DNA of 64,000 nucleotides from the NCBI GenBank assembly GCA_048938895.1, contig JBHLLU010000018.1, forward strand, positions 1-64,000. The letters are read 5' to 3'. This document shows, in pieces, positions 8,185-58,607 of this stretch; the stretch's first letter is position 1; each line of letters begins with the position of its first letter. The notes beneath the pieces were generated by a model. It made no database searches, was not told the origin of the DNA, and saw only the letters and a list, made by a program, of their open reading frames with translations. A program made the position numbers and the translations under genes. Source of the DNA: Promethearchaeota archaeon (GTDB lineage Archaea > Asgardarchaeota > Lokiarchaeia > Sigyniarchaeales > SOKP01).

Positions 8185-9741
8185 TTAAAAATTATAGCTA
8201 ATGCTTTTGAGATCATTAATTAATTTCTTTTTAATCCCAACATTATCGAGGCTGGGTAATAATTCTTCGACTATATCTCTTAATTCAACAATTTTTTGTA
8301 TAAGTAAATCTGGTTTATTCCAAAAAGATGTCCGTAAAGGATGCATTCTTGCAATTGCCTTATTATAATTTTCAATAGCAGCTCGATAAAATAAACAGGC
8401 ATTTTCCAATTTGTTTAACCTTGTTTGATAAATATTACCAATCTTATTAAAACACATTCCTGCTCCTGCATAATCACCTTCATTTTCAAAATCAACTGCT
8501 GCATCTTGAATTTTAATCAAGCCTTCCTCCAAAACATCATTACTCCCCTTCTTTAATAAAATATATCCTAATATATAATTTGAAACACCTTTATAAAATA
8601 GATTTTTATGTTTTTTTGCAATTTTGAATAAATCTTCACCAAATTCTCCTGCGAATACTAAATGATCATTAGCAATACATTTTTGGGATACAGTTCTTAA
8701 TAAATCCATGACTTTTTCTAAATTCTTTAATTCTTTGTAATGATTGATCCCCTGTCGGAATTTTTCTATACCACCAAAAGCATCCTTATTATTGAAAGCT
8801 TGATTTCCCTCGTATATCAATCTTTCAGCAAGTTCCTTTTTTGTTCTATCCTTTTGTCTTTGTTCTTCTTTTTGTGCTATGTCATCAACTTTGAAGTTTA
8901 TATCTTCTTCCATGGGGATTTCGGTTAAGAGGTTATCATTAGAAGCACTGCCGATGTTAAAGTCAAAAGGTGAAAGGTTTTCTGCTTTTATTTGGTTTTC
9001 CCCATAGGCTGCTTGTAAAGGCTTTCCTTCAGAAACGAGTGCCGATAATTCTGATAGTACATTAGCAAAGAAATATTTGTTCAATCCATCAACAATATAA
9101 TCTACTTTATGATAATTATTACTATATTCAGGAGCGTTTATATCCATAGTAGTATCTGTAATTCTATAGATTTCAAAACCAGTGTCATATTTTGTGATTA
9201 TAAATTCTGAATTTTCTTGTCTTTCCTGTTTTTTCTTTCCTAATAACGTATGATCAAACACTAAACCTATTCCATCTTCATGGGTTTGAAAAAAAACTTG
9301 ATTTCTAAGATCTATATCTGAAAAAAAAAGCCCTAAACCGGGATGGGAATGAAACCAACCTACAATGTAAAGATTTTCTCCTTGCGAATCTAACTTATCT
9401 TGTATTTCAGCTATGAATACATAATGCCTATTATCTAAGATAACATCTGTATCATGCCCAAATGTTAAAGCCTCTGCCCCTACTACATGAACAAAATCAT
9501 CATCAGTAAAACCTATTAAAACACCATAAATTTCTTTCCAATTCTCAGGTGGAATTGATCTGTTAGAATATCTACTTGCATATAGAATAATAGTTTTATA
9601 TGCCTTAGCAGAAAGTATTACAGGCTTACCTGGCATTCGCTTTTGTTCTTCTTCTGCTGGATTGATCTCTTCTTCTTCGTTTTCATATTTTTCTTCTTTT
9701 TCTTCATCGTTTTCTTTTGGATTTTTAATTTCTTCCGACAT
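8185..9741 (-). CDS. MPN+/JAMM metalloprotease (Rpn11/CSN5-like) fused to C-terminal TPR/alpha-SNAP-like helical repeats
   Basis: KEIYGVLIG (catalytic Glu) and VGWFHSHPGLGLFFSDID (intact HxH-x7-S-x2-D); TPR-like C-terminal half. Confidence 0.88.
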   Translation of the reverse strand: MSEEIKNPKENDEEKEEKYENEEEEINPAEEEQKRMPGKPVILSAKAYKTIILYASRYSNRSIPPENWKEIYGVLIGFTDDDFVHVVGAEALTFGHDTDVILDNRHYVFIAEIQDKLDSQGENLYIVGWFHSHPGLGLFFSDIDLRNQVFFQTHEDGIGLVFDHTLLGKKKQERQENSEFIITKYDTGFEIYRITDTTMDINAPEYSNNYHKVDYIVDGLNKYFFANVLSELSALVSEGKPLQAAYGENQIKAENLSPFDFNIGSASNDNLLTEIPMEEDINFKVDDIAQKEEQRQKDRTKKELAERLIYEGNQAFNNKDAFGGIEKFRQGINHYKELKNLEKVMDLLRTVSQKCIANDHLVFAGEFGEDLFKIAKKHKNLFYKGVSNYILGYILLKKGSNDVLEEGLIKIQDAAVDFENEGDYAGAGMCFNKIGNIYQTRLNKLENACLFYRAAIENYNKAIARMHPLRTSFWNKPDLLIQKIVELRDIVEELLPSLDNVGIKKKLINDLKSISYNF

Positions 9742-12690: not shown

Positions 12691-14115
12691 TTAAGAGAAA
12701 ACCTGTCTCCTCCTTCTTTCAATCCATGATATCTTTCCAGATTTACTCAATAGAAATATTTCAAATTCATTATTTTTCCAAATTATAATCCAAGAAGACT
12801 TTGCAAAAAAATTTATTGGATTCTTAATTAATTTCAAATCTTTAAGTACAGTCTGAGATTTAAAAAATTCAGGCATGAATTTGATATCTATTAAATCGGT
12901 TTGGTTTTTACCAATTGAGTTCTTTTGTGATTTGTAACTGTAGAAGAAGTCGAAAGGTGTGTTTGACAAATTATTATTTTCAACGTTAAAAAATTCAATG
13001 TTATTTAAATTCTCTATATTTTCTTTAATTGAAATTCTATTGAATCCAAGATACAAATGCTCTAATTGATTTAATATTTTTAATTGTTTAATTGCTGTTA
13101 TTTTATTGTTCCGAAGATCTAAAAATTTTAATTTTTTTAGGTGATCTAGCCCATTAATTTCAGAAATTTGATTATGACTTAGATCCAAAAATTCTAGATT
13201 AGTGAGATTATCAAGTCCTTTAATTTTAACTATTCTATTATTACTTAAATCTAATCTTTTTAAATTTTTAAGACTGTCCAGCCCTTTAATTTCTTTAATT
13301 TCGTTATTCCGCAGATTTAAAATTTCTAATTTTGATAGGTGATCTAAATTTTGTATTTCAGTAAGGCGATTATCATAAATCATCAGTGATTTCAAATTAG
13401 AAAGATTTTTAATTCCTTTAATCTCATGAATTTCATTATTATTAAGGTATAAGTATTCTAGATTTCTTAGATTTTCTAATCCTTTAATTTCTCTAATTTT
13501 ATTCCATTGAAGTTGTAAAGAATTTAGATTATTTAATTTATCCAAACCCTCTATTTCTGTTATTCTGTTAAAGTTTAAATTAAGTTTCCTTAAATTTGTT
13601 AAATTTTTCAAACCTTTAATTTTTAATATATTATCAATACTTCTACTGCTTAAATTAATAATTTGATAAACTCCAAAAGGAAAAAACAGCTTACCCTCAA
13701 AATTTATATATTCGATGGACTTCAATAATGATTTTAATTCAGGATTACCGGATTTTTCCAATGCTTTTATTATTAAAATATTACAAGATTCTGATTTTTC
13801 ATGTTTTAAAGCCCATTTAATGGGTTTTATTGCTTGCTCAGGGAAGTTTTTAATAATAATAGAGGCTGCGTTTCCTCTTACTAGTTCATTAAAATCAGAA
13901 ATTAACAGATTCTCAAGGAAGAAGTATATATTTTGGTCTTTAGAACCAATCAAACCTAAGAATTTAACACTCGAAATCCTACTATGAATATTTTTTTCAA
14001 TAGGATTTTCAATAACAGAAATTAATAGATCTGAAGCTTCACTTTTATCCAAATTCTTTTGTTTATAATTTTCATAAATTTCTTTTGGTGATATGGCTGA
14101 CATTCTATAGCTCAA
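12691..14115 (-). CDS. HEAT-like N-terminus plus SDS22-class leucine-rich repeat protein
   Basis: About 10 tandem 22-aa repeats LxxLxxLxLxxNxIxxIxGL; HEAT/PBS-like helices at the N-terminus. Confidence 0.9.
   Translation of the reverse strand: MSYRMSAISPKEIYENYKQKNLDKSEASDLLISVIENPIEKNIHSRISSVKFLGLIGSKDQNIYFFLENLLISDFNELVRGNAASIIIKNFPEQAIKPIKWALKHEKSESCNILIIKALEKSGNPELKSLLKSIEYINFEGKLFFPFGVYQIINLSSRSIDNILKIKGLKNLTNLRKLNLNFNRITEIEGLDKLNNLNSLQLQWNKIREIKGLENLRNLEYLYLNNNEIHEIKGIKNLSNLKSLMIYDNRLTEIQNLDHLSKLEILNLRNNEIKEIKGLDSLKNLKRLDLSNNRIVKIKGLDNLTNLEFLDLSHNQISEINGLDHLKKLKFLDLRNNKITAIKQLKILNQLEHLYLGFNRISIKENIENLNNIEFFNVENNNLSNTPFDFFYSYKSQKNSIGKNQTDLIDIKFMPEFFKSQTVLKDLKLIKNPINFFAKSSWIIIWKNNEFEIFLLSKSGKISWIERRRRQVFS
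12965..13625 (-). repeat. Degenerate 66-bp coding tandem repeat (LRR units)
   Basis: 22-aa periodicity in the translation, with recurring cctttaat/ttctagatt words; boundaries approximate. Confidence 0.75.
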
Positions 14116-26070: not shown

Positions 26071-28800
26071 TTATACTAATTTTAATTCACGTGATAATTC
26101 CAATAATTTTTCTTGTGAATCTTTGTCATCTGGATTGTTAATTAGACGTTTTTGATAGAAAATAATATTTGAGTATTTAACTTCAATTCGATTAAACAGT
26201 TTCACCCATGAATCAAAAAGGTTGACAAGCTCATATACTTCAGGATCTTCTTCAAATGATTTTAATTCGTTTTTATCAATGGATGAAAAAAGTTCTTTAT
26301 AACTTTTTGTACTTACCCCTTGGTCTCTTAAGAATTTTTTATTAAATTTACGAACAAAAGCATCCAGCCCACTACGCCATTTTACATATTTCCTATTTAT
26401 TTTATCAATAATTTCTTGTATGAGCTTTATCTCCTGAGGAAAAATAGTTTCTTCCTTTTTAGAAAGTATTTTTTTAATTCGTTCAAATTCCAATTCAAAT
26501 ATATTTATATAATTATTGACATTTTTCTCAAATTCAAATAAAACTGTATTATAATCTTTAGCAAACAAGATCTCCTCGCTTGAAAAAGTTAAGGTTGCTT
26601 CATCAAATGTTCCCTTCAATTTTTTTGTCTTCACTAATTCATCAAAAACTATTCTCAAAAAATCAATTTCGTCTTGTCCTAATTCCTTTTCATAGAATAA
26701 ATCATTAAATGAGAAAATAAGACTATTTTCTAACATCAGATTTCGAATTCCTCTTTCAGTATAAAATAATATATCCCCTTCATATTCATAAAATATTCCT
26801 TTCAGTTTTCCATCTTTTTGTAAATCTTTTATAAGTTCTTCAATTAACTCAGATTTGATGTCCAAATTTCCTAACGTAATAAAATCTTCTGATTTTGATT
26901 TATCTAACAACATATATTTAATATCATTTTTAGCCTCTTCGATTTTCGATAGATTGAAAATAAACCAATCATCCTTCTTAAAATAAGTAATACCGATCTC
27001 ATCAATATACTTCATAAATGAATTCATATCCATACCAGTTTTCTCGAGGTATGTACTCGCTCTGATTTGGTCCTTATTTTTAATTTCTTCAGCAATTGAT
27101 CTTAAGTTCTCATCAATATTTGTAGTTATTAAATTTTCTTCAATTTTTAATTCATTTGCTAATAATTTAATTCGATTCGATTTTTCTACTTCATCGGTTA
27201 TCTGTTTAATATCTTCAATTTTCTTCGTTATGTAATTTGAATAATAGAAAATCTCTCTTTTCTTATCCCAAATCCCACTTCTCTGATCAATAATTTGGTC
27301 AAATACATCTAATAGCAGAATCTGATTGATATTCAATTTTCTTGAAATTTTGTTAACATCGAAAAAACCAAACACTTTTGAGTTTTGAATTTCATTTGAT
27401 ATTTTAAGAGTTCCTAAGTTGGTTAACCATTGAGTTCCTTTATGATATCTGGTCAAAAAATCATTAGGTACATTCTTAATTAAATTAAGAAAGTCATTTT
27501 CTGTAAGTCTTTCTCTGTAAGATTTAAGATCTATTACGTTATTTTTAGCAGCTTCTATATTTATTTGTTCAATTATTTTTTTTTGTGAATAAAATGATTG
27601 CTTTTCCTTTCCCATTAATAATGAGTCTTTTTGATTCGTCTTAATATCATTTATGATATTTACCATAAACTCAGGTGGTAGATAATTATATTTTCTGATA
27701 TTAATAATACCCTTTTGGATTAAATCATCTTCTAATTCTGATTTAATGTGTTTATATGAGTAGAAAATTCCTAAATCTGAGTAATATCCATTAATTATTT
27801 TAAACTTTATTAAAGTATCAATTAAAAGTTTTAACTCTGAATCGGTGTGAATTATTTGAGAAAATGATTTTTGAATTTTTTCATTAGATATTTTCAAGGC
27901 TTCCTTGAATAATTTTAGTAGTTTTAATTTTTCGAGTTCGTAAATGAAAATTAAATTATTTTTATTCTTTGTATAGAAAATTATCTTTTTATCATTCAAA
28001 CCTAAATTTTCAATTTGTTTTATATAATCCCTTAGCTTTATATTAGATTTAGATGATATCTCTGAAAAATTGGTTTTTTTCATAAGACTTTGTTTATCTA
28101 ATAATTCCAACAATTCTTTTTCATTAGTTGCATCAACGTTAATTTCTTTTAAATCGGGAAAATATTTAGAAAGGACTTCCAATAAATTAGGAATGATATC
28201 TGATTTAAAATCATTAAAAAATGATGAAATTAATGATTTTGAAATTTCTCTTAGAGAATATAGCTGGTTAAAATTCAATTCTTTACAGAAACCAAGCAAA
28301 GAAATCAATGATTGCAAATTGTCTTTACTTACTTCCTTAGAAAGACTTTGTAATAAAAGATCTTTAATATTTTTAACCAAATCTGGCTCTTTCTTTACTA
28401 ATTCCTGTAAGAAGAAATGAACATTATCTCTAACGTCAACAGATTTGTCTTTTAAGAATTTTGCAAGTTTTTCAAAATATTCTTTTACATAATCATGATT
28501 TGATAAGAGTTTGAATCCTATAATAATAATTGAATTAACTCGCAGTTTGGGATCATTAGATTTGAGTAAATTCTGAATCTTTTTAAATATTCGCTCAGTT
28601 AAAATATTTGAATCATATTCTGCTAGAACACTTAATATATATGTTGTAGCTACAACACTTTCAGGTGCATCTAATAACTGCTCCAATTTTTCTACAACAG
28701 TAACCACTTTTTGAGATTTATTTTTACTAAGAAATTTGTTTAGTTTATCAACTAGTGGTACAAGAACCAAATCGTTTTCAAAATCCTTTAGATTAAACAT
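26071..28800 (-). CDS. Large protein with N-terminal HEAT/ARM repeats and tandem winged-helix (PCI/UFL1-like) domains
   Basis: HEAT pattern (DPKLRVNSIIIIG, SVDVRDNV); repeated YS/YT..I..EI...G.I...wH units; LVKTKKLKGTFD PCI-like end. Confidence 0.6.
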   Translation of the reverse strand: MFNLKDFENDLVLVPLVDKLNKFLSKNKSQKVVTVVEKLEQLLDAPESVVATTYILSVLAEYDSNILTERIFKKIQNLLKSNDPKLRVNSIIIIGFKLLSNHDYVKEYFEKLAKFLKDKSVDVRDNVHFFLQELVKKEPDLVKNIKDLLLQSLSKEVSKDNLQSLISLLGFCKELNFNQLYSLREISKSLISSFFNDFKSDIIPNLLEVLSKYFPDLKEINVDATNEKELLELLDKQSLMKKTNFSEISSKSNIKLRDYIKQIENLGLNDKKIIFYTKNKNNLIFIYELEKLKLLKLFKEALKISNEKIQKSFSQIIHTDSELKLLIDTLIKFKIINGYYSDLGIFYSYKHIKSELEDDLIQKGIINIRKYNYLPPEFMVNIINDIKTNQKDSLLMGKEKQSFYSQKKIIEQINIEAAKNNVIDLKSYRERLTENDFLNLIKNVPNDFLTRYHKGTQWLTNLGTLKISNEIQNSKVFGFFDVNKISRKLNINQILLLDVFDQIIDQRSGIWDKKREIFYYSNYITKKIEDIKQITDEVEKSNRIKLLANELKIEENLITTNIDENLRSIAEEIKNKDQIRASTYLEKTGMDMNSFMKYIDEIGITYFKKDDWFIFNLSKIEEAKNDIKYMLLDKSKSEDFITLGNLDIKSELIEELIKDLQKDGKLKGIFYEYEGDILFYTERGIRNLMLENSLIFSFNDLFYEKELGQDEIDFLRIVFDELVKTKKLKGTFDEATLTFSSEEILFAKDYNTVLFEFEKNVNNYINIFELEFERIKKILSKKEETIFPQEIKLIQEIIDKINRKYVKWRSGLDAFVRKFNKKFLRDQGVSTKSYKELFSSIDKNELKSFEEDPEVYELVNLFDSWVKLFNRIEVKYSNIIFYQKRLINNPDDKDSQEKLLELSRELKLV

Positions 28801-31335: not shown

Positions 31336-31716
31336 ATGATTAAAGAACCCAAAATTGAGGATTTAAAACGTAAAATCAATTTTGGTATCAAATTTTGGCT
31401 TCAATTTGAAAATAAGAGTATTTTGGGTAGTGGATGGGCAAATTTATTAAAATGTATTGAAAAAAATAAAGAAGGGTCTTTAACTCAGGCAGCTAGAGAG
31501 TGTAATTATTCCTATAAATATGCTTGGAATATTTTAAAGAGAATTGAGAAAAGAACAGGGATGTCAGTTGTAATCACAGGCAAAGGAGGTCCCGGAGGAG
31601 GTGGATGGATTAAACTCAATGAATGGGGGGAATACCTTTTAAATACTTATATTAAGTATTATAAAGAAATTAGTAAAATTGAACAAAATCTTGAAGGAAC
31701 TATGAAATCTACTTAA
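31336..31716 (+). CDS. ModE N-terminal-like winged-helix regulator (no TOBE domains)
   Basis: GSLTQAARECNYSYKYAW, GGPGGG wing. Confidence 0.85.
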   Translation: MIKEPKIEDLKRKINFGIKFWLQFENKSILGSGWANLLKCIEKNKEGSLTQAARECNYSYKYAWNILKRIEKRTGMSVVITGKGGPGGGGWIKLNEWGEYLLNTYIKYYKEISKIEQNLEGTMKST

Positions 31717-31823
31717 TAAATAAATTTTAATTTAAAAAATGATTAATTTCATTAAGATTAGTGCAATGATATAGATTTTTTTTGAAAAGGGGTTTGAAAG
31801 AATTAGAGGTATGAGGTTTTAAT

Positions 31824-32252
31824 ATGGGTGAAGATCGTTTGCAAAAATTTGGTAAAGTCAGAGTATCTCAGATTATGATTAAAGATCCCTTGTCTATTAC
31901 CCCAAATGAGAAAATCAGTGCAACAGAGCTTTTAATGCTAAGGAAAAAGGTGGGTGGCTTACCTGTAGTTAAAGATCAGAGAAATAAGGAATTAGTTGGA
32001 ATTATAACTCAACGCGATATACGTCTGGCTAGGTTTGCTATGAACCTGGAATCACCAAATACCTCTGTTAAAGATTTAATGACCTCTGAGCCTTTTACTG
32101 TCAAAGAATATGACACAATAGAGAAAGTTTTAGAATTAATGTTTGATAAAAATGTACAACGTTTACCTGTGGTAAATGATTTCAACCAATTGATTGGTTT
32201 AATAGTACAAAACCAAATCTTAAAAAAACTATTTGATTATATGAAAACATAA
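31824..32252 (+). CDS. CBS-pair protein
   Basis: GLPVV..LVGIITQRD and RLPVV..LIGLI. Confidence 0.9.
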   Translation: MGEDRLQKFGKVRVSQIMIKDPLSITPNEKISATELLMLRKKVGGLPVVKDQRNKELVGIITQRDIRLARFAMNLESPNTSVKDLMTSEPFTVKEYDTIEKVLELMFDKNVQRLPVVNDFNQLIGLIVQNQILKKLFDYMKT

Positions 32253-32330
32253 TAAATTTATATAAACTATTAGATCATAATTTTTGTAAAACAATTTAGA
32301 TCACTTAAAAAAAATAATCACTGATTTATA

Positions 32331-33854
32331 ATGGCATTACCCTTACCTGGTACACCAATTATAATTGATATTGGATCTGCTTATGTGAAGGTCGGATTTG
32401 CAGGGGAACCAAGCCCCAGGTTTGTCTTTCCATGTATAACAGGTACTGAGAAATATAAAGCTGTAATGGTTGATGTGAGTGCAAGGAGCATATACGTTGG
32501 TAATGATGTTTCAAGGATGAGGGGTGTGCTTAAGATCAAACATCCCATCGAACGTGGCGCAATTATGGATTGGGATAGCTTCTACGAAATCCTTAATTAT
32601 ATATTCTACAGTCTGCTTAGAATAGAAAATTTAGCTGAGTATCCCGTATTTTATTGTGAACCCCCTTTCATGAATAAAGAAACTAAAGAATACATCGCCA
32701 GACTTCTATTTGAAACTCATAGAGTTAGAAGTCTAATTATGATGCCAACACCCTTGCTATCTCTCTTCAGTGTAGGACTGACAACAGGATTAGTCGTTGA
32801 AAGTGGTGATGGATTAACTTGGGTATGTCCTATTATAAATGGTCAAATGGTTCAACATTCTGTACAAAAACTTTCTTTAGCAGGAGTCGATGTTAATCAC
32901 AATTTAAAAAACCTTCTAATGCGAGAAGGAATAAATATAGCCTCCAGTGCCGCAGATGAAATTATTCAAGAAATAAAAGAAAAAAATTGTTATTTCGTTC
33001 TAGATCCAAGAAATCAACCAAGAACGAATGATATGTTTAACGTTCCTATGCCAGATGGTTCAACCATAAATATTCCTAATTATATTCTTTCTCAAGCTCC
33101 AGAAGTACTTTTTGAACCGAGTATGTTAGGATATAGTACCGTTATGAACATACCCGATGCTATTATTGCCAGCTTAAGAGTCATAGATAATAATTATTGG
33201 CATGAACTATTATCTCATATAGTAATTTCAGGAGGAAACCTCTCTTATAGTGGATTCGAACAAAGATTTGAATCGGAATTAAATAATGTTCTACCTCAAC
33301 TTGGTTCAATCCCGAGACCAAAACCAACATTATCAGTAGTAAAGAACGAATTAATTCAACTTCAAGTAGCAGAAATGTCGAAGAAAAAGCATGATACATG
33401 TAGTCATTGTGGAGCGTTTATAGATCTTTCTTCAGGCATTGAACATTGTCCTTCATGTGGAGGTAGATTAGCCTTACCTGAAATAAAAATAGGGTTAACT
33501 TCTCAAAATGGAAAACCAAAACCTAAAAGTGGAATCTGTCCTTTTTGTAAAAAAGAAATTGCTGATATATCATCTCTTTTTTGTCCGTATTGTGGAAGAT
33601 CAATAGAAAGTTTAGAGGATTCGGAACTTAAAGAAGCTAAAAAGAAAAAAACACAAGTAGAGGAATTTACTGAATATATGGAAGCTTCAAGCAAAATTTC
33701 AAAATTTTTTGTACCTGACAATCTGCAATTTACAATTTTTAATGGAGCAGCTATACTAGGAAGTTTACCATCGTTTCAGAATCTTTTTATTACCTATGAG
33801 CAATTTCAATCTAATAGAGATTTATTATATAGAGACATTAGCGAAATCCTTTAA
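32331..33854 (+). CDS. Asgard actin-family protein with internal double zinc-ribbon insertion
   Basis: IIIDIGSAYVKVGFAGEPSPRFVFP, HPIERG..DWD, TGLVVESGDG, PEVLFEP, IVISGG, GAAILGSL; insertion carrying CSHC/CPSC/CPFC/CPYC. Confidence 0.93.
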   Translation: MALPLPGTPIIIDIGSAYVKVGFAGEPSPRFVFPCITGTEKYKAVMVDVSARSIYVGNDVSRMRGVLKIKHPIERGAIMDWDSFYEILNYIFYSLLRIENLAEYPVFYCEPPFMNKETKEYIARLLFETHRVRSLIMMPTPLLSLFSVGLTTGLVVESGDGLTWVCPIINGQMVQHSVQKLSLAGVDVNHNLKNLLMREGINIASSAADEIIQEIKEKNCYFVLDPRNQPRTNDMFNVPMPDGSTINIPNYILSQAPEVLFEPSMLGYSTVMNIPDAIIASLRVIDNNYWHELLSHIVISGGNLSYSGFEQRFESELNNVLPQLGSIPRPKPTLSVVKNELIQLQVAEMSKKKHDTCSHCGAFIDLSSGIEHCPSCGGRLALPEIKIGLTSQNGKPKPKSGICPFCKKEIADISSLFCPYCGRSIESLEDSELKEAKKKKTQVEEFTEYMEASSKISKFFVPDNLQFTIFNGAAILGSLPSFQNLFITYEQFQSNRDLLYRDISEIL

Positions 33855-34003
33855 AACTAAAATATTTCTATTTTAATTCTATAAAATAAATTTGTATCTA
33901 TTTTTAAGAATATCTTATTTAAATGTTCTATTTATAGATAATTTTTAATTCCAAGGTAAATTTAAACAATTAAAATTTTATTCATAAAGCCTAGGTTTTT
34001 TAT

Positions 34004-35098
34004 TTGAGGAACAAATTACGCTACTTTACCATAATTTTTCTTGTGTTTATTTTTACATTAAATGTAATTCCAATTGCATTGGCTAAAACACGAAAAATCT
34101 ATTTGACTGATTTTCTATATAACAATGAAATTAATGGTGAGGGATTTAAGAATGGGATAGATGGAACAAGTGTTCTAATTGAAGCAACAGCACAAGCATT
34201 AGAAATTTTAGATCAATATAATATGAATCCTCATGATATTGAGGATTTAGAGTCTAAACTAAAATCGGATTTAGAAGAAATGTTTGATAATGATGATGTA
34301 GTACTTTACGATTTATATTTCTTACTGAAAGCATTAAATATTTTAAAATATTCTATAGACGCACAGTTAATAGGTAGAATCTATGGATATTTAAACCAAA
34401 CTGAACAAATTGGAGGAGGTTTTTCATTTTCAAACAAATCTTCATTAGCAAGTCTAAGTTCTACATATTTTATTGTCCAAGTACATTCCTTTATAGATAA
34501 ACCTGTACCAAACGCAACAATTCATAGGGATTGGGTACTTTTATGTAATAATAGTGATGGCGGATATGGGGGGAATGAAAGTCTATCCTCAACTTTACTC
34601 AATACATACTACGCAGTTTCAATTTTAAACAATTTAGGTTTTATAACCGACTTAATTGACGAAAACCAAACTCTAACATATCTCAACACATTTTATATAC
34701 AGAATCCATCTGATAAAAACAACTATGGTGGTTATCTCCCTGATATAACAGCAAATTATGCTCTGTTAAGTAGTACATACTATTGTATAAAAGCAATTTC
34801 AATCATAGATGATACTCAACTCAATAACAATCCAACTACAAGGTGGGTGTTAAGCCGTCAAAATTTTCAAGATGGAGGTTTTGCTGATATATCTGTGGGA
34901 ACAGATCAAATGAGTTCTTCTGTAATCTCATCGTATTATGCTTTTAATACTTTAAAGATATTAGATCCTTCCTTATCCAAATTAGCTTCAGAAGTTTTTA
35001 TGGTGGAATTTAATTACTGGGTACTGGTAATTATAATGGCAACAATAGGATTAATTGCGGGATTAGGAGTTGTAATTTGGAGAAGAAGAAGAATTTAA
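34004..35098 (+). CDS. Exported, C-terminally anchored prenyltransferase/squalene-cyclase repeat (alpha/alpha barrel) protein
   Basis: Signal peptide ending in ALA; repeats GGGFS, NSDGGYG, YGGY and QNFQDGGF, each followed by S/NTYY; C-terminal TM plus RRRR. Confidence 0.75.
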   Translation: MRNKLRYFTIIFLVFIFTLNVIPIALAKTRKIYLTDFLYNNEINGEGFKNGIDGTSVLIEATAQALEILDQYNMNPHDIEDLESKLKSDLEEMFDNDDVVLYDLYFLLKALNILKYSIDAQLIGRIYGYLNQTEQIGGGFSFSNKSSLASLSSTYFIVQVHSFIDKPVPNATIHRDWVLLCNNSDGGYGGNESLSSTLLNTYYAVSILNNLGFITDLIDENQTLTYLNTFYIQNPSDKNNYGGYLPDITANYALLSSTYYCIKAISIIDDTQLNNNPTTRWVLSRQNFQDGGFADISVGTDQMSSSVISSYYAFNTLKILDPSLSKLASEVFMVEFNYWVLVIIMATIGLIAGLGVVIWRRRRI

Positions 35099-35173
35099 AT
35101 ATTAAGGCTACTTCAGGATGAAGAAAATTTATTATACCCTTTATTAATCTTGTTTTAAGGATAAACTAAAATC

Positions 35174-36037
35174 ATGACTGATAAAATTCTGGATGGAAAA
35201 GCTTTAGCAGATAAATTGAATTTAGAGCTTAGGGGAGAAATAACTCTTGCTGAAGAAAAAACGGGAATAAAACCCAAATTAGTTACTATTATAGTTGGCA
35301 AGGATCCTGCTTCAAAAGTATATATAAATATAAAAAAAAGAACCTGTGCTTTAATTGGGATGGATTCTGAAGTATTAGAACTTGATGAGGGAATCTCAAA
35401 GGATAAACTCTTAGATGAAATACAAAAGTATAATCAGGATCCTAATATCCACGGCATCTTACTCCAAAAACCCATTCCTAAAGCTTTATTTAATTATTCT
35501 TTAGAATTTTTCCAGAAAATTCTCCCACAAAAGGATGTAGATGGCTTGAATCCATATAATAAGGGGAAACTTTTTAATTATAACGAAGAATTAGCAGCTT
35601 GTACACCCAAAGGCATTATTGCTCTATTGGATCATTATAATATAACATTAAAAGGAAAGGAGGTTGTAATAATTAATCGCTCTGATCTCGTTGGAAAGCC
35701 CTTAATCTTTATGATGCTAAGACGAAATGCTACAGTTACAGTTTGTCATACTTCTACTGTTAACATTGAAAATCATATGAGAAGAGCAGATATACTAGTT
35801 GTCGCAATACGACAACCTAATTTTGTAACCCGTGATAAAATAAAGGAAGGTGTTATAATTATAGATGTAGGGACTAACAGAGTCAATGGAAAACTATGTG
35901 GAGATGTAGATTTTGATGATGTTTACGAGAAGTGTAGTTATATTACTCCATCTCCCGGAGGTATCGGTCCCCTTACGGTTCATTTTTTACTCCGCAACAG
36001 TTTTACAGCTTATAAAAACCAATTAGGATACATCTAG
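35174..36037 (+). CDS. folD: Bifunctional methylene-THF dehydrogenase/cyclohydrolase
   Basis: ILDGK, YxxxK, GILLQ.P, KDVDG, CTPKG, RS..VGKP, DVG, GDVDF, TP.PGG.GP.T. Confidence 0.95.
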   Translation: MTDKILDGKALADKLNLELRGEITLAEEKTGIKPKLVTIIVGKDPASKVYINIKKRTCALIGMDSEVLELDEGISKDKLLDEIQKYNQDPNIHGILLQKPIPKALFNYSLEFFQKILPQKDVDGLNPYNKGKLFNYNEELAACTPKGIIALLDHYNITLKGKEVVIINRSDLVGKPLIFMMLRRNATVTVCHTSTVNIENHMRRADILVVAIRQPNFVTRDKIKEGVIIIDVGTNRVNGKLCGDVDFDDVYEKCSYITPSPGGIGPLTVHFLLRNSFTAYKNQLGYI

Positions 36038-36202
36038 CTATAATATTTTTAGATATTAACTTTTTATAAATCTAAAAACCATTAAGATTATATCTAAATG
36101 AATTTTAAAAATAGATAGTAATAAAAACTTTCATTATTACTAATAAACAAACTAGCGAATTTTATTAATTATTTAATAATAGAAGAACGTTCTTAAGAAA
36201 TA

Positions 36203-36658
36203 ATGGCAATCTTAGAAGTTGGAATCAATATTGGTATGAAAAATCTAATCGAAATCAAGTACTATTCATCTTCTGATGATGTATTAGATCCTAATTTACG
36301 TGCTGGTTTTCTAACTGCATTAGAAAGCTTTACTAACGAAGTTTTTGGAGATGACATAAACGTTATATCTCTTGCTAGCTTTAAATTAGTCTGCTATTGC
36401 GAAATGATTCAAATACCTGGTGATGAAGCAGAAAATATGCAACCACTATTATCATTTGCCATTATAGAAAAAGGAACGGAAGTCCCAGTAGTTAAAGAAC
36501 AACTTAACGAGATTATAACTTATTTCTTAAACCGTTACTCATTAAATGACATTTTTTCTAAAAAACCCAAATATTTCATAGATTTTGAATCTCGAATCAA
36601 TGAAATTTTAGGTGACTTAAAATTAAAAACAGAGGATCGTTTTAGAAGTATTTTTTAA
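36203..36658 (+). CDS. Longin-like domain protein
   Basis: beta-beta-alpha pattern with DPNLRAGFLTALESFTNEVF, further strands and C-terminal helices, typical of Asgard longins. Confidence 0.7.
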   Translation: MAILEVGINIGMKNLIEIKYYSSSDDVLDPNLRAGFLTALESFTNEVFGDDINVISLASFKLVCYCEMIQIPGDEAENMQPLLSFAIIEKGTEVPVVKEQLNEIITYFLNRYSLNDIFSKKPKYFIDFESRINEILGDLKLKTEDRFRSIF

Positions 36659-36682
36659 ATAAATAATCATAGGGATTGATTT

Positions 36683-37879
36683 TTGAGTTCAAATATTGGA
36701 GCAGAAGCCAAAGTAAAATACCAAGAATATTTAGATGCAGGATCTTTAGAACAAAAAATTAAATTGTTAGAAGAATTCATCTCTTTAGTTCCTAAACATA
36801 AAGCAACAGAGAAAATCATAGCACTAAATAAATCTCGAGTTTCTAAGATGAAACGCGAACTTGAGGAACGAAAACAAAGACAAAAAACCACCCAAAAAGT
36901 TATTAGTCCTTTTTCAATAAAAAAAGAGGGGATTCAGATTGTTCTTATAAGTGCTTATTATACTCCAGGTACGGGCAAAACCTCCCTTTTAAATTATTTA
37001 ACTGGTGCTGCTGATGAAAAAATTGGAAAATTTACTGCTTTACCTGAAATAGGAATTTATCGATATCAAAAAATTCGATTTCAAATTGTAGAGATGCCTT
37101 CTATAATGAAAGGTGCAGCGGAAGGTATAGGAAATGGAAAAGAAATACTTTCTCAATTAAGATCATGTGATCTAATTTGTGTATGTATTGACCTATCAAG
37201 ATCAGTTGAAGAACAAATGAATTTACTTTTAGAAGAATTAGACAAAGCAGAAATCAGACTCAATGTAACTCCCCCCCCTATAAAAGTTCAAAAAACCGGC
37301 TCAAACAAGATACAAGTCTTATATCTAACGGGAGATGCTAAAAAAGTAGAAGATATTGAAGAGTTCACTGAAAAAGTAAAAGAAATTGTATCTGAAAATG
37401 GAATTAGAAATGCTATTGTGAAAATTCTAGGACCAATCTCGCTTAATGATCTTGTAGATGCTTTAACACCTTCTGTTGTTTATAAGCAAGCTCTCATCAT
37501 TGCTACGAAGGGTGATCTACCTCATACTGAAGAGCAGTTCGATAAATTAAAGGAAAAATATAGTAAAAATTTTACAAAAATAATCGGGATTAGTGTACAT
37601 ACGAAAAATTTCCCTCATGATTTTGGAGAACTAATTTTATCATATCTTAAGAAAATAAGAATATACACAATGAGCACAAATGGAAAAATTGCTGAAAAGC
37701 CACTTATTATGGATGAAAACTCGACAATAAAAGATGCAGCTATCAAAATACATAAAAGTTTTTTTGAGTCTTTTGATCATGCTGTAGTTATTAGAGAAGG
37801 TGCTCGTCAAAAACGTAAGAGAGTAGGATTAGATTATCATTTAAAAGATAAAGATATCATAGAAATTCATACGTTGTAA
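36683..37879 (+). CDS. DRG/Rbg (OBG-family) GTP-binding protein with TGS domain and degenerate G motifs
   Basis: PKHKATE, GKTSLL..LTG, GAAEG.G.GK, TKGD, C-terminal TGS domain (IH..F..A..RVGLDY.L.D.DIIEIH). Confidence 0.88.
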   Translation: MSSNIGAEAKVKYQEYLDAGSLEQKIKLLEEFISLVPKHKATEKIIALNKSRVSKMKRELEERKQRQKTTQKVISPFSIKKEGIQIVLISAYYTPGTGKTSLLNYLTGAADEKIGKFTALPEIGIYRYQKIRFQIVEMPSIMKGAAEGIGNGKEILSQLRSCDLICVCIDLSRSVEEQMNLLLEELDKAEIRLNVTPPPIKVQKTGSNKIQVLYLTGDAKKVEDIEEFTEKVKEIVSENGIRNAIVKILGPISLNDLVDALTPSVVYKQALIIATKGDLPHTEEQFDKLKEKYSKNFTKIIGISVHTKNFPHDFGELILSYLKKIRIYTMSTNGKIAEKPLIMDENSTIKDAAIKIHKSFFESFDHAVVIREGARQKRKRVGLDYHLKDKDIIEIHTL

Positions 37880-45915: not shown

Positions 45916-46953
45916 GTGGGAGACGTCATTAACTTAAAATTGATTGTTCTCGGGGAAGGAGACGTAGGGAAGACGTCAATAATAAACGCTTTTCTAGATG
46001 AGGAATTTTCTGAAAGCTATATGCCAACAATTGGGAGTGTGACGACTAGAAAGGAGTATCTCCTAAGCGAAAACGCTATGTCTATTAAATTAACGATATG
46101 GGATCTTGGAGGCCAAAAATCATTTAATCCCTATAATCCTGCTCATTATTCTAATGCTGATCTTGCTATATTGGTATTCGATTTAACGAAACCAGAAGAT
46201 ACACTAAAAAATCTCAAAAAGGAATTTGAAGAAAAATTAGGTAATTCTAAAGAAGAATGCATATCTCTTTTAGCTGGCAACAAATTGGATCTTTTTGAAG
46301 AGAATTCTACCATTAAAAAGACCTTACAAAATTTCCTTAAAGAAAGAGATAACTTCATTTTAATGTCAGCTAAAAATTCTATAAATGTTAATGATTGTTT
46401 TGAGCTTCTCCTATATACTTACTTAAAAAGAGCAGAATTATTAGCATCTGATCTGATTCAAGAGGGCACTGCGAACGATTTCTTAAAATTAATAGCTAAA
46501 GATGAAAAATTTTTACAAACAAAATTAACAAATATAAACACCATTGAAAGTGTCATAGAAAAAATGAGTTTAAAGTCTGAATCAAAAACAATCGATTTTA
46601 CTGAAGATGATACTAATGAATTGAAATATCAAGAATTTTTACAACAGGAAATCTATAAAGTTCGTAATCAGAAAAATGATATATTTGATCAATTTTTAAT
46701 AAATCTTTCTGAGTTTGAAAAAGCTCTAACTCATATAAAGAAGACCCATATCAAATCCACAGGAGAAATGGTTGATGCCTTACGAAATTTATTAATTACA
46801 TCTAAAAATGATTTTGAACAAAATATTAAGTTAATTCAAAAATTAAATCTAGAGGAGCATGAGTTAATGATTATCAACTCCAAGCTCAAAACTGAAAGTC
46901 AAGATATAAATAGTAAGGAAATTCTCCATCAAGATAATATATATAATATTTAA
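45916..46953 (+). CDS. Rab-like small GTPase with long C-terminal helical/coiled-coil extension
   Basis: GEGDVGKT, PTIG, WDLGGQ, NKLD, SAK, followed by about 175 aa of helical sequence. Confidence 0.9.
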   Translation: MGDVINLKLIVLGEGDVGKTSIINAFLDEEFSESYMPTIGSVTTRKEYLLSENAMSIKLTIWDLGGQKSFNPYNPAHYSNADLAILVFDLTKPEDTLKNLKKEFEEKLGNSKEECISLLAGNKLDLFEENSTIKKTLQNFLKERDNFILMSAKNSINVNDCFELLLYTYLKRAELLASDLIQEGTANDFLKLIAKDEKFLQTKLTNINTIESVIEKMSLKSESKTIDFTEDDTNELKYQEFLQQEIYKVRNQKNDIFDQFLINLSEFEKALTHIKKTHIKSTGEMVDALRNLLITSKNDFEQNIKLIQKLNLEEHELMIINSKLKTESQDINSKEILHQDNIYNI

Positions 46954-55847: not shown

Positions 55848-55985
55848 TTAATACTAAGAAATTCAATTTACAAAAAAAAATGATTAGACTATGACTAAAA
55901 GTTTTCAATTTGCATGAAGAAAATGATTAGATCATGACTTAACATTTCCATTTAACATAAAAAAAATGATTAGAACATGATTAAA
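55848..55985 (+). repeat. Imperfect tandem direct repeat with 43-bp period, three copies of aaaaTGATTAGAnnATGAnT plus a partial upstream copy
   Basis: TGATTAGA at 55881, 55924 and 55967; ATG at 55891, 55934 and 55977, the last being the gene start. Confidence 0.8.
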
Positions 55986-58607
55986 AACAAACTTTTGATT
56001 AGTATATTGACATTTTTGTTAATAGGCAGTATTATTATCCAAATTGTATCACTTCCAACAAATAATTATATGCAAACTAAGATTAAAGAGAAAGATGACA
56101 TTCCGATAAATGAAATTGAACCAATAGACCTTGGGATTCTCCAACGAAATTATAAAGCTGACGGATCAATTATGGAGGTAGAAGAAGGTATTAATCAAGC
56201 AGATTCAACAACCCCCGGTGTTGAATTGGGAGATCATCCATTAGGGATAGATCAAATTCGATTTATTCCTAATAATGAATTAGCATTTGTTTGTCCAGGA
56301 TTACCAGATTTTGTTAATCTAAATGATGTAAAGATCAAGCTACTTGAAAATGGAATTGCTTCACCCCCTTATCAGAATATGTTGGATATACCTTGTAGTT
56401 ATGAAGCCACAGGAGGACAAGTTGTGGATGCAACAAGTGGAGATGTTGATGGTGATATGAAAGATGAACTTGTAATAATTGATGAATACGGAAGAGTCCG
56501 GATTTATAAATACAATTCGACTTTAAAGAAGTTTAACATTACTCAATATGATCTAGATATAAGTGAAGAACATTATTTTTATAGTCTTTCTCTGAATCAA
56601 TTTAATACAGATCTAGGTTTAGAAATAGTAATTGGATGTGGTTATGGAGAAAAAATCCAAATCTGGGATCCAGTGAATGCTGTAGGCAATTATTATAGCC
56701 CAGGTGTACAAACAACTATAAATGGAGAATACGGTGGTATTGCTGAATTCCATATTACTGAAAATACAAACCTTATGGATTTAGAAACTGGAGATTTTAA
56801 TGGAAATGGGTTCCCTGATATTGTTACTCTCGCAATGGATGGAGATTTATTAGCATTTGAATTTAACTCAGGAGTTATAAACCAATTATGTGGAGTCGAA
56901 TTGAGTAGTGGTGATTGGCAAGGTTATCCCCATAATTTCCCAATGGGTCTAGCTACCGGAGATTTTAATGGAGATTCTCGGTTAGATATAGCTGTTATGG
57001 TGTGTGATGTTGCAGGTAGTCCTGAGGATATATATCATTGTGAATATTATTACGTTCAAACTGTTTATTGGAAAGGATTTTCAGCAGGAGGTGAGGACTT
57101 TGTGGATTTAGGTGAGATGGATATGGCACTTTACAATGTCTTTTTTCCTTCAATTGGAGCGGGTGATATTGATGGGGATGGACTATCTGAAACAGTATTA
57201 GTTGGGAAAAGTGGATATGGTATAGAAGGGGAGTCATGGGTCGTGTTGATTTTTGATGATTGGGCTATTCCCCAAACATCTCCAATAGTAACCTTTTCTG
57301 GTGAATCACAATGTCCTTGGGCTGCAAAATCCTTCTCTTTTTCTGATGTAGATTTGGATGGGATTGATGAAATTTGTTTTTCAAGTGTCGAGAAATATGG
57401 AAATATTTACGAGGAAAAATATTTAGAACAATTAGAAGGAAGAAATACATCTGTAGTTAAAATTAATACAGAAACAAATCCATGGACTGCTACGGTGTTA
57501 TTTTCAAGTACAGATATAATCGGATATCCCGTTCCAGGAGATTATGATGGGGATGCGGTTGTAATAGAATATTCTGGTCAACATTTCCCTCGAATAACAC
57601 CTCAAATCCCTATTTTTGTTTTGGCAGCACCACCTAATTATTTTGATCTAAATGGTGACGGTAGTGGTACTGCTGTATCAAAAGAAGAAACCACTTCAAT
57701 GGATGTGACCGAAAGATTTAGTGTTATGGCGGGAATGAGAGTTTCTTTTGAAACCGGATTTGAATTATTTGGCACAGGGTTAAAATTTAAAACTAGTTTA
57801 GAGGTCAATTATCAATTTTCTCAAACTCAAACTACTACACAAACTGAAACGATAGGTGTACGATATTCATCTGGTCATATGGAAAATCAGATCATTTGTA
57901 ATGCAATTGATTATGAATCTTATTTATATGTGGTAACAAAGCATCCAAAGTCAGAAATGATAGGAAAAAATATGTCAATAGATGTACCTATAAAAGCATC
58001 TATCTATAGTATTACAGAGTCTTTATATAATAGTGGTAATTCTACAAATTATATTGGTTCTGAAACTTATACACATACACCAGGAAAACCTGAAACTTAT
58101 CCTACCCGAGAAGAAGTAAATGCATTAGTAGGTGTTGTGAAGATTATTGACAAAATAGAAGTACCCCAGGGGACTGGTACCAGCTGTGGAAGTACATTAA
58201 AATATACAAGGGAAAATGCGAAATCTGTTGAAAAGGAACGTGCAATGCAACTAATTTTCTCAGCGGGTATGGAAGCAGGAGGCTTTGGGCTTGATATAAG
58301 TGTAGGTTTTGGTCTTTCTAGGGCTAATAAAGTCACTTATGGTGAAAGTATGACATATGAGGGTACAGTTGCATGTATCTCCGATGCTAATGATTGGATG
58401 AACCATAAATATTCATGGGGTCTCTTTATACAAAATATTGAACCAGATGAAGGTTTTTCATATCAATTGGTCCACTATTATGTAGAAGATGTTCTTAGTG
58501 ATGGTACTCCTTCCGAAGCAGTTCCAGGTTACAATCCAATTTTAGTTATTGGAGTATTGATCATTTCACTTATTGTCCTAATATATTTTAAAAAACCGAA
58601 AAAGTAA
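55977..58607 (+). CDS. Cell-surface FG-GAP/VCBS repeat protein with a Ser/Thr-rich beta-hairpin domain and Loki-CTERM anchor
   Basis: N-terminal signal; repeats GDVDGD..DEL, GDFNGNG..DI, GDFNGDS..DI, GDIDGDG..E, DVDLDG.DE, GDYDGD; C-terminal VPGY + TM + KKPKK. Confidence 0.85.
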   Translation: MIKNKLLISILTFLLIGSIIIQIVSLPTNNYMQTKIKEKDDIPINEIEPIDLGILQRNYKADGSIMEVEEGINQADSTTPGVELGDHPLGIDQIRFIPNNELAFVCPGLPDFVNLNDVKIKLLENGIASPPYQNMLDIPCSYEATGGQVVDATSGDVDGDMKDELVIIDEYGRVRIYKYNSTLKKFNITQYDLDISEEHYFYSLSLNQFNTDLGLEIVIGCGYGEKIQIWDPVNAVGNYYSPGVQTTINGEYGGIAEFHITENTNLMDLETGDFNGNGFPDIVTLAMDGDLLAFEFNSGVINQLCGVELSSGDWQGYPHNFPMGLATGDFNGDSRLDIAVMVCDVAGSPEDIYHCEYYYVQTVYWKGFSAGGEDFVDLGEMDMALYNVFFPSIGAGDIDGDGLSETVLVGKSGYGIEGESWVVLIFDDWAIPQTSPIVTFSGESQCPWAAKSFSFSDVDLDGIDEICFSSVEKYGNIYEEKYLEQLEGRNTSVVKINTETNPWTATVLFSSTDIIGYPVPGDYDGDAVVIEYSGQHFPRITPQIPIFVLAAPPNYFDLNGDGSGTAVSKEETTSMDVTERFSVMAGMRVSFETGFELFGTGLKFKTSLEVNYQFSQTQTTTQTETIGVRYSSGHMENQIICNAIDYESYLYVVTKHPKSEMIGKNMSIDVPIKASIYSITESLYNSGNSTNYIGSETYTHTPGKPETYPTREEVNALVGVVKIIDKIEVPQGTGTSCGSTLKYTRENAKSVEKERAMQLIFSAGMEAGGFGLDISVGFGLSRANKVTYGESMTYEGTVACISDANDWMNHKYSWGLFIQNIEPDEGFSYQLVHYYVEDVLSDGTPSEAVPGYNPILVIGVLIISLIVLIYFKKPKK

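Follow-up and report, generated by a model that had tools for sequence, protein, structure and literature searches.

The 64,000 nucleotides analysed here (contig JBHLLU010000018.1 of a Promethearchaeota archaeon, hereafter the window; G+C content ~30%) encode a divergent actin homologue whose fold is interrupted by a pair of zinc ribbons. The gene lies at 32331..33854 on the + strand and was defined from the list of open reading frames, its translation and Pfam; it specifies 507 aa followed by a stop codon, a length matched by orthologs of 501-510 aa. We refer to its product as the zinc-ribbon actin-related protein (ARP). Two separate stretches make up its actin core. The N-terminal part (residues 1-322; 32331..33296, + strand), delimited by Pfam and by alignment to Protein Data Bank (PDB) sequences, comprises subdomains 1, 2 and 4 and most of subdomain 3. 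The C-terminal part (residues 457-507; 33699..33851, + strand) aligned through its residues 457-495 to actin residues 327-364 and had a changed C-terminus, reading …YRDISEIL where actin has …HRKCF. The Pfam family Actin (PF00022) matched residues 9-322 far above its cut-off (E 5.4e-67; 226.6 bits against 27), placing the protein in the actin family, and phmmer searches of the PDB paired residues 6-324 and 457-495 with actins. The top match was 9wc4_A, 'HC1 actin' (2.7e-70), and eukaryotic actins came next, near 1e-63. PMC13716822 uses HC1 as a strain name for a cultured member of the Hodarchaeales, and 9wc4 is presumably the actin of that organism.

An AlphaFold2 (AF2) model of the window protein, built on 64 family sequences, had a mean predicted local distance difference test (pLDDT) score of 77.5. 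Much of the actin core exceeded 90; the N-terminal part was mostly >80 and the C-terminal part reached 87-92. When this model was used in Foldseek, E values of about 1e-32 and TM-scores of 0.84-0.88 on target length were obtained, and actins were the only proteins among the matches shown. In the model, the four-subdomain actin fold is complete, as a first-pass annotation of the window, made from the letters alone, had proposed. The D-loop region (residues 38-57, GTEKYKAVMVDVSARSIYVG; 32442..32501, + strand) occupies nearly invariant columns of the family alignment; its pLDDT was <50 and it is therefore modelled as flexible. This string and the others quoted in that annotation were all present in the protein, with FESELNNVLP at 313-322, FFVPDNLQF at 459-467 and GAAILGSL at 472-479.

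The two core stretches are separated by an insertion of 134 residues (323-456; 33297..33698, + strand), refined from an earlier estimate of ~33305-33695. Its limits follow from the alignment, where query P322 falls on actin P322 and query S457 on about I327. On the barbed-end face of subdomain 3 it takes the place of the actin loop S323-K326, and the intact subdomain 3 loop 322-325 of canonical actin is replaced by these 134 residues. Actin numbering follows what we take to be the standard scheme, anchored on HMMER and MAFFT alignments.

Two ribbon units, each of the form CxxC-(12-13 residues)-CxxC, were identified within the insertion. Zinc ribbon 1 (residues 354-380; 33390..33470, + strand; C357, C360, C373 and C376) was covered by Zn_ribbon_3 over residues 356-380, and zinc ribbon 2 (residues 401-426; 33531..33608, + strand; C403, C406, C418 and C421) by DUF7575/Zn_Ribbon_1 over residues 403-425. 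Inside residues 356-425, Zn_ribbon_3 scored 36.1 bits (cut-off 27) and DZR scored marginally (27.4 bits against a cut-off of 27.3), so that two CxxC…CxxC units matched the double-zinc-ribbon families (PF12773 DZR/PF13248) at cut-off. The four CxxC pairs had already been read by eye as two zinc ribbons, and all eight cysteines were found in 119/119 aligned orthologs, whose insertions measured 135-142 aa. The ribbons are predicted to bind zinc. Ribbon 1 was modelled at a pLDDT of about 67-72 and both ribbons within 67-74; the linkers (333-350, 383-398 and 430-446) were all <50. This points to a tethered module, unlike a packed domain. The last linker ends in an acidic-aromatic tail motif, QVEEF (residues 442-446; 33654..33668, + strand; pLDDT <50; family consensus P-A-x-E-F); E445 and F446 hardly vary across the family alignment. 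A small-x-E-F acidic-aromatic motif followed the ribbons in all lineages printed. An ESM Atlas search with the insertion gave no usable match.

The composition of the insertion bears on the suggestion that DNA or RNA is bound by the ribbons together with basic linkers and is thereby tied to actin. Many nucleic-acid binders contain zinc ribbons, nuclear Arp5 and Arp8 touch DNA or nucleosomes through their insertions, and one source labels a relative of this protein 'RNA polymerase subunit RPABC4/Spt4'-like. Across the 119 orthologs, linker 1 was basic (median net charge +4, isoelectric point (pI) 10.1), the sole linker of which this held. The ribbons themselves were acidic to neutral (median pI 4.6 and 6.3 for ribbons 1 and 2, respectively), which weakly disfavours nucleic-acid binding, and the net charge of the whole insertion ranged from -6 to +10 (median +2). 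Furthermore, ribbon 2 is dispensable in several lineages, and the Pfam families matched are generic DZR/Zn_ribbon families without known function. We therefore regard a nucleic-acid tether as improbable.

The nucleotide site differed from that of actin in four positions that the first-pass annotation had aligned by eye and that HMMER and MAFFT alignments upheld: Q137 is replaced by T140, H161 by W164, D154 by E157 and H73 by R75. The residues that hold the nucleotide were retained by sequence (actin D11, G13, S14 and K18; G156 and D157; K213 and E214; G302). Among the 119 close orthologs, D13, G15, S16 and K20 were invariant (119/119), and K216, E217 and G302 were retained in distant members as well. 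The phosphate-2 loop (ESGDGLTW, residues 157-164, including E157 and W164; 32799..32822, + strand, from the alignments) was nearly as well conserved in the close orthologs (W164 and G159, 119/119; E157, 117/119; D160, 108/119). In actin, Q137 places the hydrolytic water in filamentous actin (F-actin). Threonine (115) or serine (4) took this position in the close orthologs (T140; 32748..32750, + strand) and serine (29), threonine (16) or alanine (2) in 47 distant members, such that glutamine was found in 0/119 and 0/47, respectively. Arginine at the H73 position (R75; 32553..32555, + strand) was universal (119/119 and 47/47). The H161 position was far more variable, with T21, H11, S6, F4, W3, Y1 and N1 among the distant members. 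The catalytic pair Q137 and H161 of canonical filament-forming actins is represented here by T140 and W164. By these alignments, a residue other than glutamine at 137 together with arginine at 73 is family-defining; tryptophan at 161, which had been grouped with the other non-canonical residues, marks only the window's own family-level group. As the loops that hold the nucleotide are kept but the hydrolysis-activating glutamine is gone, ATP is probably held with little or no turnover.

We examined the spread of the family in several datasets. A protein search returned 120 clusters with 64-96% identity to the window protein, 117 of which were 490-510 aa long; the remaining three (422, 429 and 498 aa) appear partial. 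Precomputed Pfam lists contained a zinc-ribbon family for all clusters except one partial sequence. A scan of one genome per species recovered 134 encoding stretches, 80 of which were kept for comparison of loci. The identical architecture in 134 species-level genomes ruled out a chimeric assembly, which the first-pass annotation had named, alongside absence of the insertion from orthologs, as an outcome that would undo its proposal. A family profile was also run on 400 genomes of the phylum, with a match defined as E<=1e-150 and reaching into or through the insertion. By this measure the gene was found in 142/153 other genomes of the window's own order, which included 127/134 genomes of the window's own family-level group, the single genome of a second family (1/1), 10/14 of a third and 4/4 of a fourth, where the alignment stops near position 390. 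At the same threshold, 0/7 genomes from other orders of the class and 0/239 from the rest of the phylum matched. Outside the order the best E values were about 1e-92 to 1e-108, and the six matches listed end at query position 322-325, which identifies them as the Lokiactin core only. In two genomes without the gene that were checked (G147 and G232) the neighbouring gene was gone too, so these absences reflect a locus that is unassembled or was lost as a whole. The family is under strong purifying selection. One ortholog from another genome of the genus (G195:C12:3309-4412) matched only positions 80-446 and contained five in-frame stops (3 TAG, 2 TAA); this copy may be a pseudogene or a product of poor assembly.

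More distant members, at 38-59% identity, carried the insertion at the identical site in the representatives compared, as did all distant members examined. Named members of the family come from both cultured Lokiarchaeia that were checked: P0277 of Promethearchaeum syntrophicum, annotated as 'zinc ribbon domain-containing protein' (557 aa, 37% identical), and P0299 of Ca. Lokiarchaeum ossiferum, annotated as 'hypothetical protein' (499 aa, 38% identical). Among 48 sequences (the P0001 sequence and 47 distant members), four CxxC pairs were counted in 39, two in 8 and three in 1, and the two-CxxC, one-ribbon forms include the L. ossiferum member. The ribbon 1 cysteines are the only cysteines invariant across two family alignments, and ribbon 2 is absent from some lineages.

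The genome contains five actin-family matches, namely Lokiactin itself (C99; 55-61% identical to eukaryotic actins), a second Lokiactin-like gene (C58), a 373-aa paralogue (C37), a divergent 396-aa paralogue (C85) and the zinc-ribbon gene. Compared at 356 mapped positions with the Lokiactin of the same genome, the zinc-ribbon protein was 36% identical, and its best identities to actin-like representatives were 33-38%, below the roughly 55-60% that marks members of the Lokiactin clade in comparisons with eukaryotic actin. In a quick IQ-TREE maximum-likelihood tree of 47 rows, for which only the SH-aLRT branch support was calculated, the zinc-ribbon family formed a separate clade (SH-aLRT 100, stem 0.73), within which two one-ribbon forms, P0126 and the member from the fourth family, branch first. 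The forks leading to Lokiactin, actin, centractin and the 373-aa paralogue had support <80 or were unstarred, in a tree built without Arp2/Arp3, and neither Arp2 nor Arp3 was among the names of 20 actin-like representative matches. Since the joining forks are open and Arp2/3 lie outside the tree, we assign no kinship to any eukaryotic Arp subfamily. The label 'specialised Arp-like' thus holds loosely, for a divergent actin paralogue distinct from Lokiactin, and does not extend to a grouping with a eukaryotic Arp subfamily; by these sequence comparisons, 'Arp' is used here in the former sense. The C58 gene (L002 1474-2367 +), outside the window, is cut by a contig end; with estimated contamination of the genome at 7.5%, either a genuine additional copy or a sequence from a second strain is possible.

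The 373-aa paralogue C37 (L003 1492-2613 +, outside the window), in which the alignment places D at Q137 and R at H161, is a possible partner of the zinc-ribbon protein. Its orthologs (E<=1e-118) occurred in 36/40 sampled genomes of the window's own family-level group and in 3/3 of the third family, with only Lokiactin-level matches (1e-91 to 1e-96) elsewhere. The two paralogues thus share an order-restricted spread and both lack Q137 and H161, as would fit a protein that forms no filament and acts as a scaffold, either on its own as a monomer or joined to C37 in a heterodimer, much as paired Arps do within larger complexes, its ribbons recruiting it to a membrane protein or complex. Also in keeping with such a scaffold, a similar double ribbon occurs just once more in the genome, where it forms the cytosolic tail of a membrane protein with two transmembrane helices (E 7e-4). 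However, the co-distribution of two paralogues in one clade amounts to a single evolutionary event and is no proof of partnership, and the conserved D-loop resembles that of Lokiactin (K-Y..[VI]M.DV; 6/15 identical), which fits filament contacts at least equally well. A scaffold of this kind seems unlikely to us. The membrane protein that bears the similar double ribbon is a 496-aa product of G000:C1 (L094 220-1710 +, outside the window), with N-terminal RGG repeats, two transmembrane helices and the double zinc ribbon at its C-terminus.

According to a figure legend in the review PMC7247010, neighbouring F-actin subunits meet through residues 322-325 in subdomain 3 of one and residues 243-245 in subdomain 4 of the other, and the D-loop makes contacts with the C-terminus, Pro-rich loop and W-loop; the insertion stands exactly where the 322-325 contact loop would be. 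We compared column entropy between the 64-sequence family alignment and 43 Lokiactins, using a pointed-face set (38-52, 61-65, 200-208 and 241-247; n=36) and a barbed-face set (135-146, 165-172, 283-294, 346-355 and 367-375; n=51, or n=42 for Lokiactin, where 367-375 was unmapped). These contact sets are largely what we take the two faces to be; support from a paper covers the 322-325/243-245 pair along with the D-loop, W-loop, Pro-rich loop and plug. In the zinc-ribbon family the entropy of the pointed face (0.55; permutation P = 0.003 against random core sets) was below that of the core (0.84) and the entropy of the barbed face (1.00; P = 0.04) above it, and the two faces differed significantly from each other (Mann-Whitney, P = 0.001). 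Lokiactin displayed the reverse, with 0.81 for the pointed face, 0.43 for the barbed face and 0.56 for the core. The same pattern was apparent in the individual elements. Entropies of the W-loop (1.32 in the family, 0.26 in Lokiactin) and residues 283-294 (1.46 and 0.59) were greater in the zinc-ribbon family, and those of the D-loop (0.59 and 0.96) and residues 61-65 (0.05 and 0.81) were smaller. Within the family, the D-loop set had a conservation of 0.87 at an entropy of 0.59, in comparison to 0.80 and 0.85 for the core, while the W-loop, 283-294, Pro-rich loop and plug ranged from 1.12 to 1.46. Judged by this variation, the pointed face is under strong constraint and the barbed face is relaxed, with the situation in Lokiactin reversed.

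Such a pattern also has to be set against the view that the protein is a decorated filament subunit, forming a homopolymer or a copolymer with Lokiactin from which the insertion is looped out so that the ribbons can serve bundling, membrane attachment or cargo. The linkers in the AF2 model are long and disordered, as this would require, and the D-loop is conserved, as are the two cleft helices 135-146 (0.87) and 346-355 (0.85). The nearby actin residues K326 and K328 are solvent-exposed at the filament surface. On the other hand, glutamine never occupies the Q137 position, and the W-loop, 283-294, Pro-rich loop and plug are all less conserved than the core, opposite to what was observed in Lokiactin. 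In L. ossiferum, the three homologues other than Lokiactin are transcribed several-fold below Lokiactin according to the accessible text of PMC9834061, a figure given for all three, whichever of them belongs to this family. We consider a decorated subunit doubtful.

A nucleator, which the first-pass annotation had offered beside a capper, would seed Lokiactin filaments, for instance as a ribbon-mediated dimer or, in sister lineages, by means of an LKKT-type tail motif that keeps hold of a monomer. A sister family (L086-L088, P0127, P0130, P0277 and P0299) carries a conserved stretch, 'KLDRKEKKL[LI]KKT…EL…VESEYG', after its ribbons, which by eye resembles beta-thymosin/WH2 motifs, and WH2-like motifs are reported in Asgard gelsolins in the accessible text of the PMC13716822 preprint. 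The L[LIM]KK[TV] string was nevertheless found in only 8/132 family sequences and is absent from the window protein. A WH2/thymosin identity for the sister tails was rejected, as no Pfam match was obtained at E<=10 in 6 proteins, a search in which the HMMER filters drop most weak matches; the stretch was modelled at pLDDT <50 and undocked. Moreover, a template needs a usable barbed face, the relaxed one here. Nucleation through the protein's own barbed face is disfavoured by the same asymmetry between faces that favours capping, and there is in our opinion only a slim chance that the protein is a nucleator.

The capper-like role that had been suggested fits this asymmetry, and of the functions considered a capper or anchor fits best. 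Our tentative reading, to which we give somewhat less than an even chance, is that the zinc-ribbon protein is a slow- or non-hydrolysing actin-fold subunit that sits on the barbed end of Lokiactin or on another actin-fold partner and offers its ribbons to a further partner. The pointed-end face would dock either on Lokiactin, at the barbed end of a filament, or on a different actin-fold protein, at its barbed face. Once docked, the protein could not readily accept the next subunit, and the tethered ribbons together with the acidic-aromatic tail motif would be displayed to a putative partner. The outcome would be a filament-end terminator or anchor.

Several observations weigh against this reading. 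Co-immunoprecipitation of Lokiactin from Ca. L. ossiferum significantly enriched Lokiactin, one profilin, five gelsolin homologues and an ARF GTPase, and the accessible main text of PMC13716822 names no ARP among the enriched proteins. The L. ossiferum member P0299 has a single ribbon and retains histidine at the H161 position. In the comparison of faces, the contact sets are largely assumed, burial was uncontrolled and the compared sequences are related to each other. The cleft-lining elements of the barbed side (135-146 and 346-355) are well conserved, so the cleft may still bind something. As K326 and K328 lie at the filament surface, a flexible insertion near them might be tolerated in a polymer. 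Finally, the S14 and D157 positions vary in more distant members, which makes nucleotide binding uncertain there.

A bolder form of the same idea, which we think unlikely in its full extent, is that the Lokiarchaeales possess an actin-fold end-binder of their own that plugs or anchors the barbed end of Lokiactin and couples it, via the ribbons and the tail, to the membrane or to another partner. It would then represent an invention of the archaea, parallel to the Arp-based control of filament ends in eukaryotes but independent of it, to which the tail of the sister family, the one with the cultured species, may add a thymosin/WH2-like monomer-binding motif.

The genes from 31336 to 37879 are all on the + strand and are arranged in the order helix-turn-helix (HTH) protein, CBS pair, zinc-ribbon ARP, toroid protein, FolD, 151-aa protein and DRG-like GTPase. 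The toroid protein (364 aa; 34004-35098, + strand) has a signal peptide, a prenyltransferase-like alpha/alpha toroid and a C-terminal transmembrane helix, along with a faint match to the Ribophorin II N-terminal domain (E 4.4e-4). Its gene lies directly 3' of the ARP gene in 77/80 related loci and in 6/7 distant loci. The 151-aa protein (36203-36658, + strand) had no Pfam match but was present in 72/80 loci at a median identity of 78%; the DRG/Obg-like GTPase with a TGS domain (36683-37879, + strand) begins 24 bp downstream, and the 151-aa protein may be its partner. Across a span of -6 to +8 kb around the ARP gene, neighbours were retained in 56-77 of the 80 loci each. The block HTH - (CBS) - ARP - toroid - FolD was conserved in most of the 80 loci and occurred in the sister families too. 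Of the seven distant loci, three (L086-L088) had HTH, ARP, toroid and FolD, two (L090 and L091) had ARP, toroid and FolD without HTH, and one (L092) had HTH, ARP and toroid without FolD; at the locus of the fourth family (L089) none of these neighbours was found beside the ARP. As the conserved span is long and mixes unrelated functions, we read it as general deep synteny, and the neighbourhood was set aside as a functional clue.

Elsewhere in the window, several genes of eukaryote-like or signalling type were observed. This included a Ras/Roc-family small GTPase with a C-terminal extension (345 aa; 45916-46953, + strand), a leucine-rich repeat protein (12691-14115, - strand), a JAB/MPN protein (518 aa; 8185-9741, - strand), an FG-GAP repeat protein (876 aa; 55977-58607, + strand) and a 909-aa protein with a Cnd1/HEAT-like region (26071-28800, - strand).

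In comparison to Lokiactin and eukaryotic actin, the zinc-ribbon protein has the same fold, phosphate-binding loops and adenosine-pocket residues, and its D-loop sequence is similar. It differs in lacking Q137 and H73, in its new C-terminus and 134-aa insertion, in forming a separate clade and in the reversed conservation of its two faces. Arp2 and Arp3 carry extra residues at the same loop, between helix K and strand 15, but their inserts are about 10-20 residues long and without metal sites. Arp11, at the pointed end of the dynactin Arp1 filament, and Arp2/3 are likewise actin folds that use one face and have the other altered; in the zinc-ribbon protein it would be the barbed face that is altered. 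DZR (PF12773), Zn_ribbon_3 (PF13248) and DUF7575 proteins have the same paired CxxC units, here placed inside an actin fold. We found no description of a zinc-ribbon insertion in an actin fold in the full-text literature searched, a body of text that mostly excludes subscription journals. Ca. L. ossiferum has four actin homologues, three of which cluster with ARPs (Rodrigues-Oliveira et al., PMC9834061); in the accessible text of that article the ARPs appear as tree leaves and as targets of quantitative reverse-transcription PCR, and the word 'insertion' refers to insertion-sequence elements only.

The family described here is conserved order-wide, has a structural peculiarity at a filament-contact loop and includes members in both cultured Lokiarchaeia that were checked, organisms for which antibodies, proteomics and live imaging exist. 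The question of end regulation by actin-fold proteins is therefore directly testable in these archaea, and with it whether the regulation of filament ends by such proteins preceded eukaryotes or arose independently.

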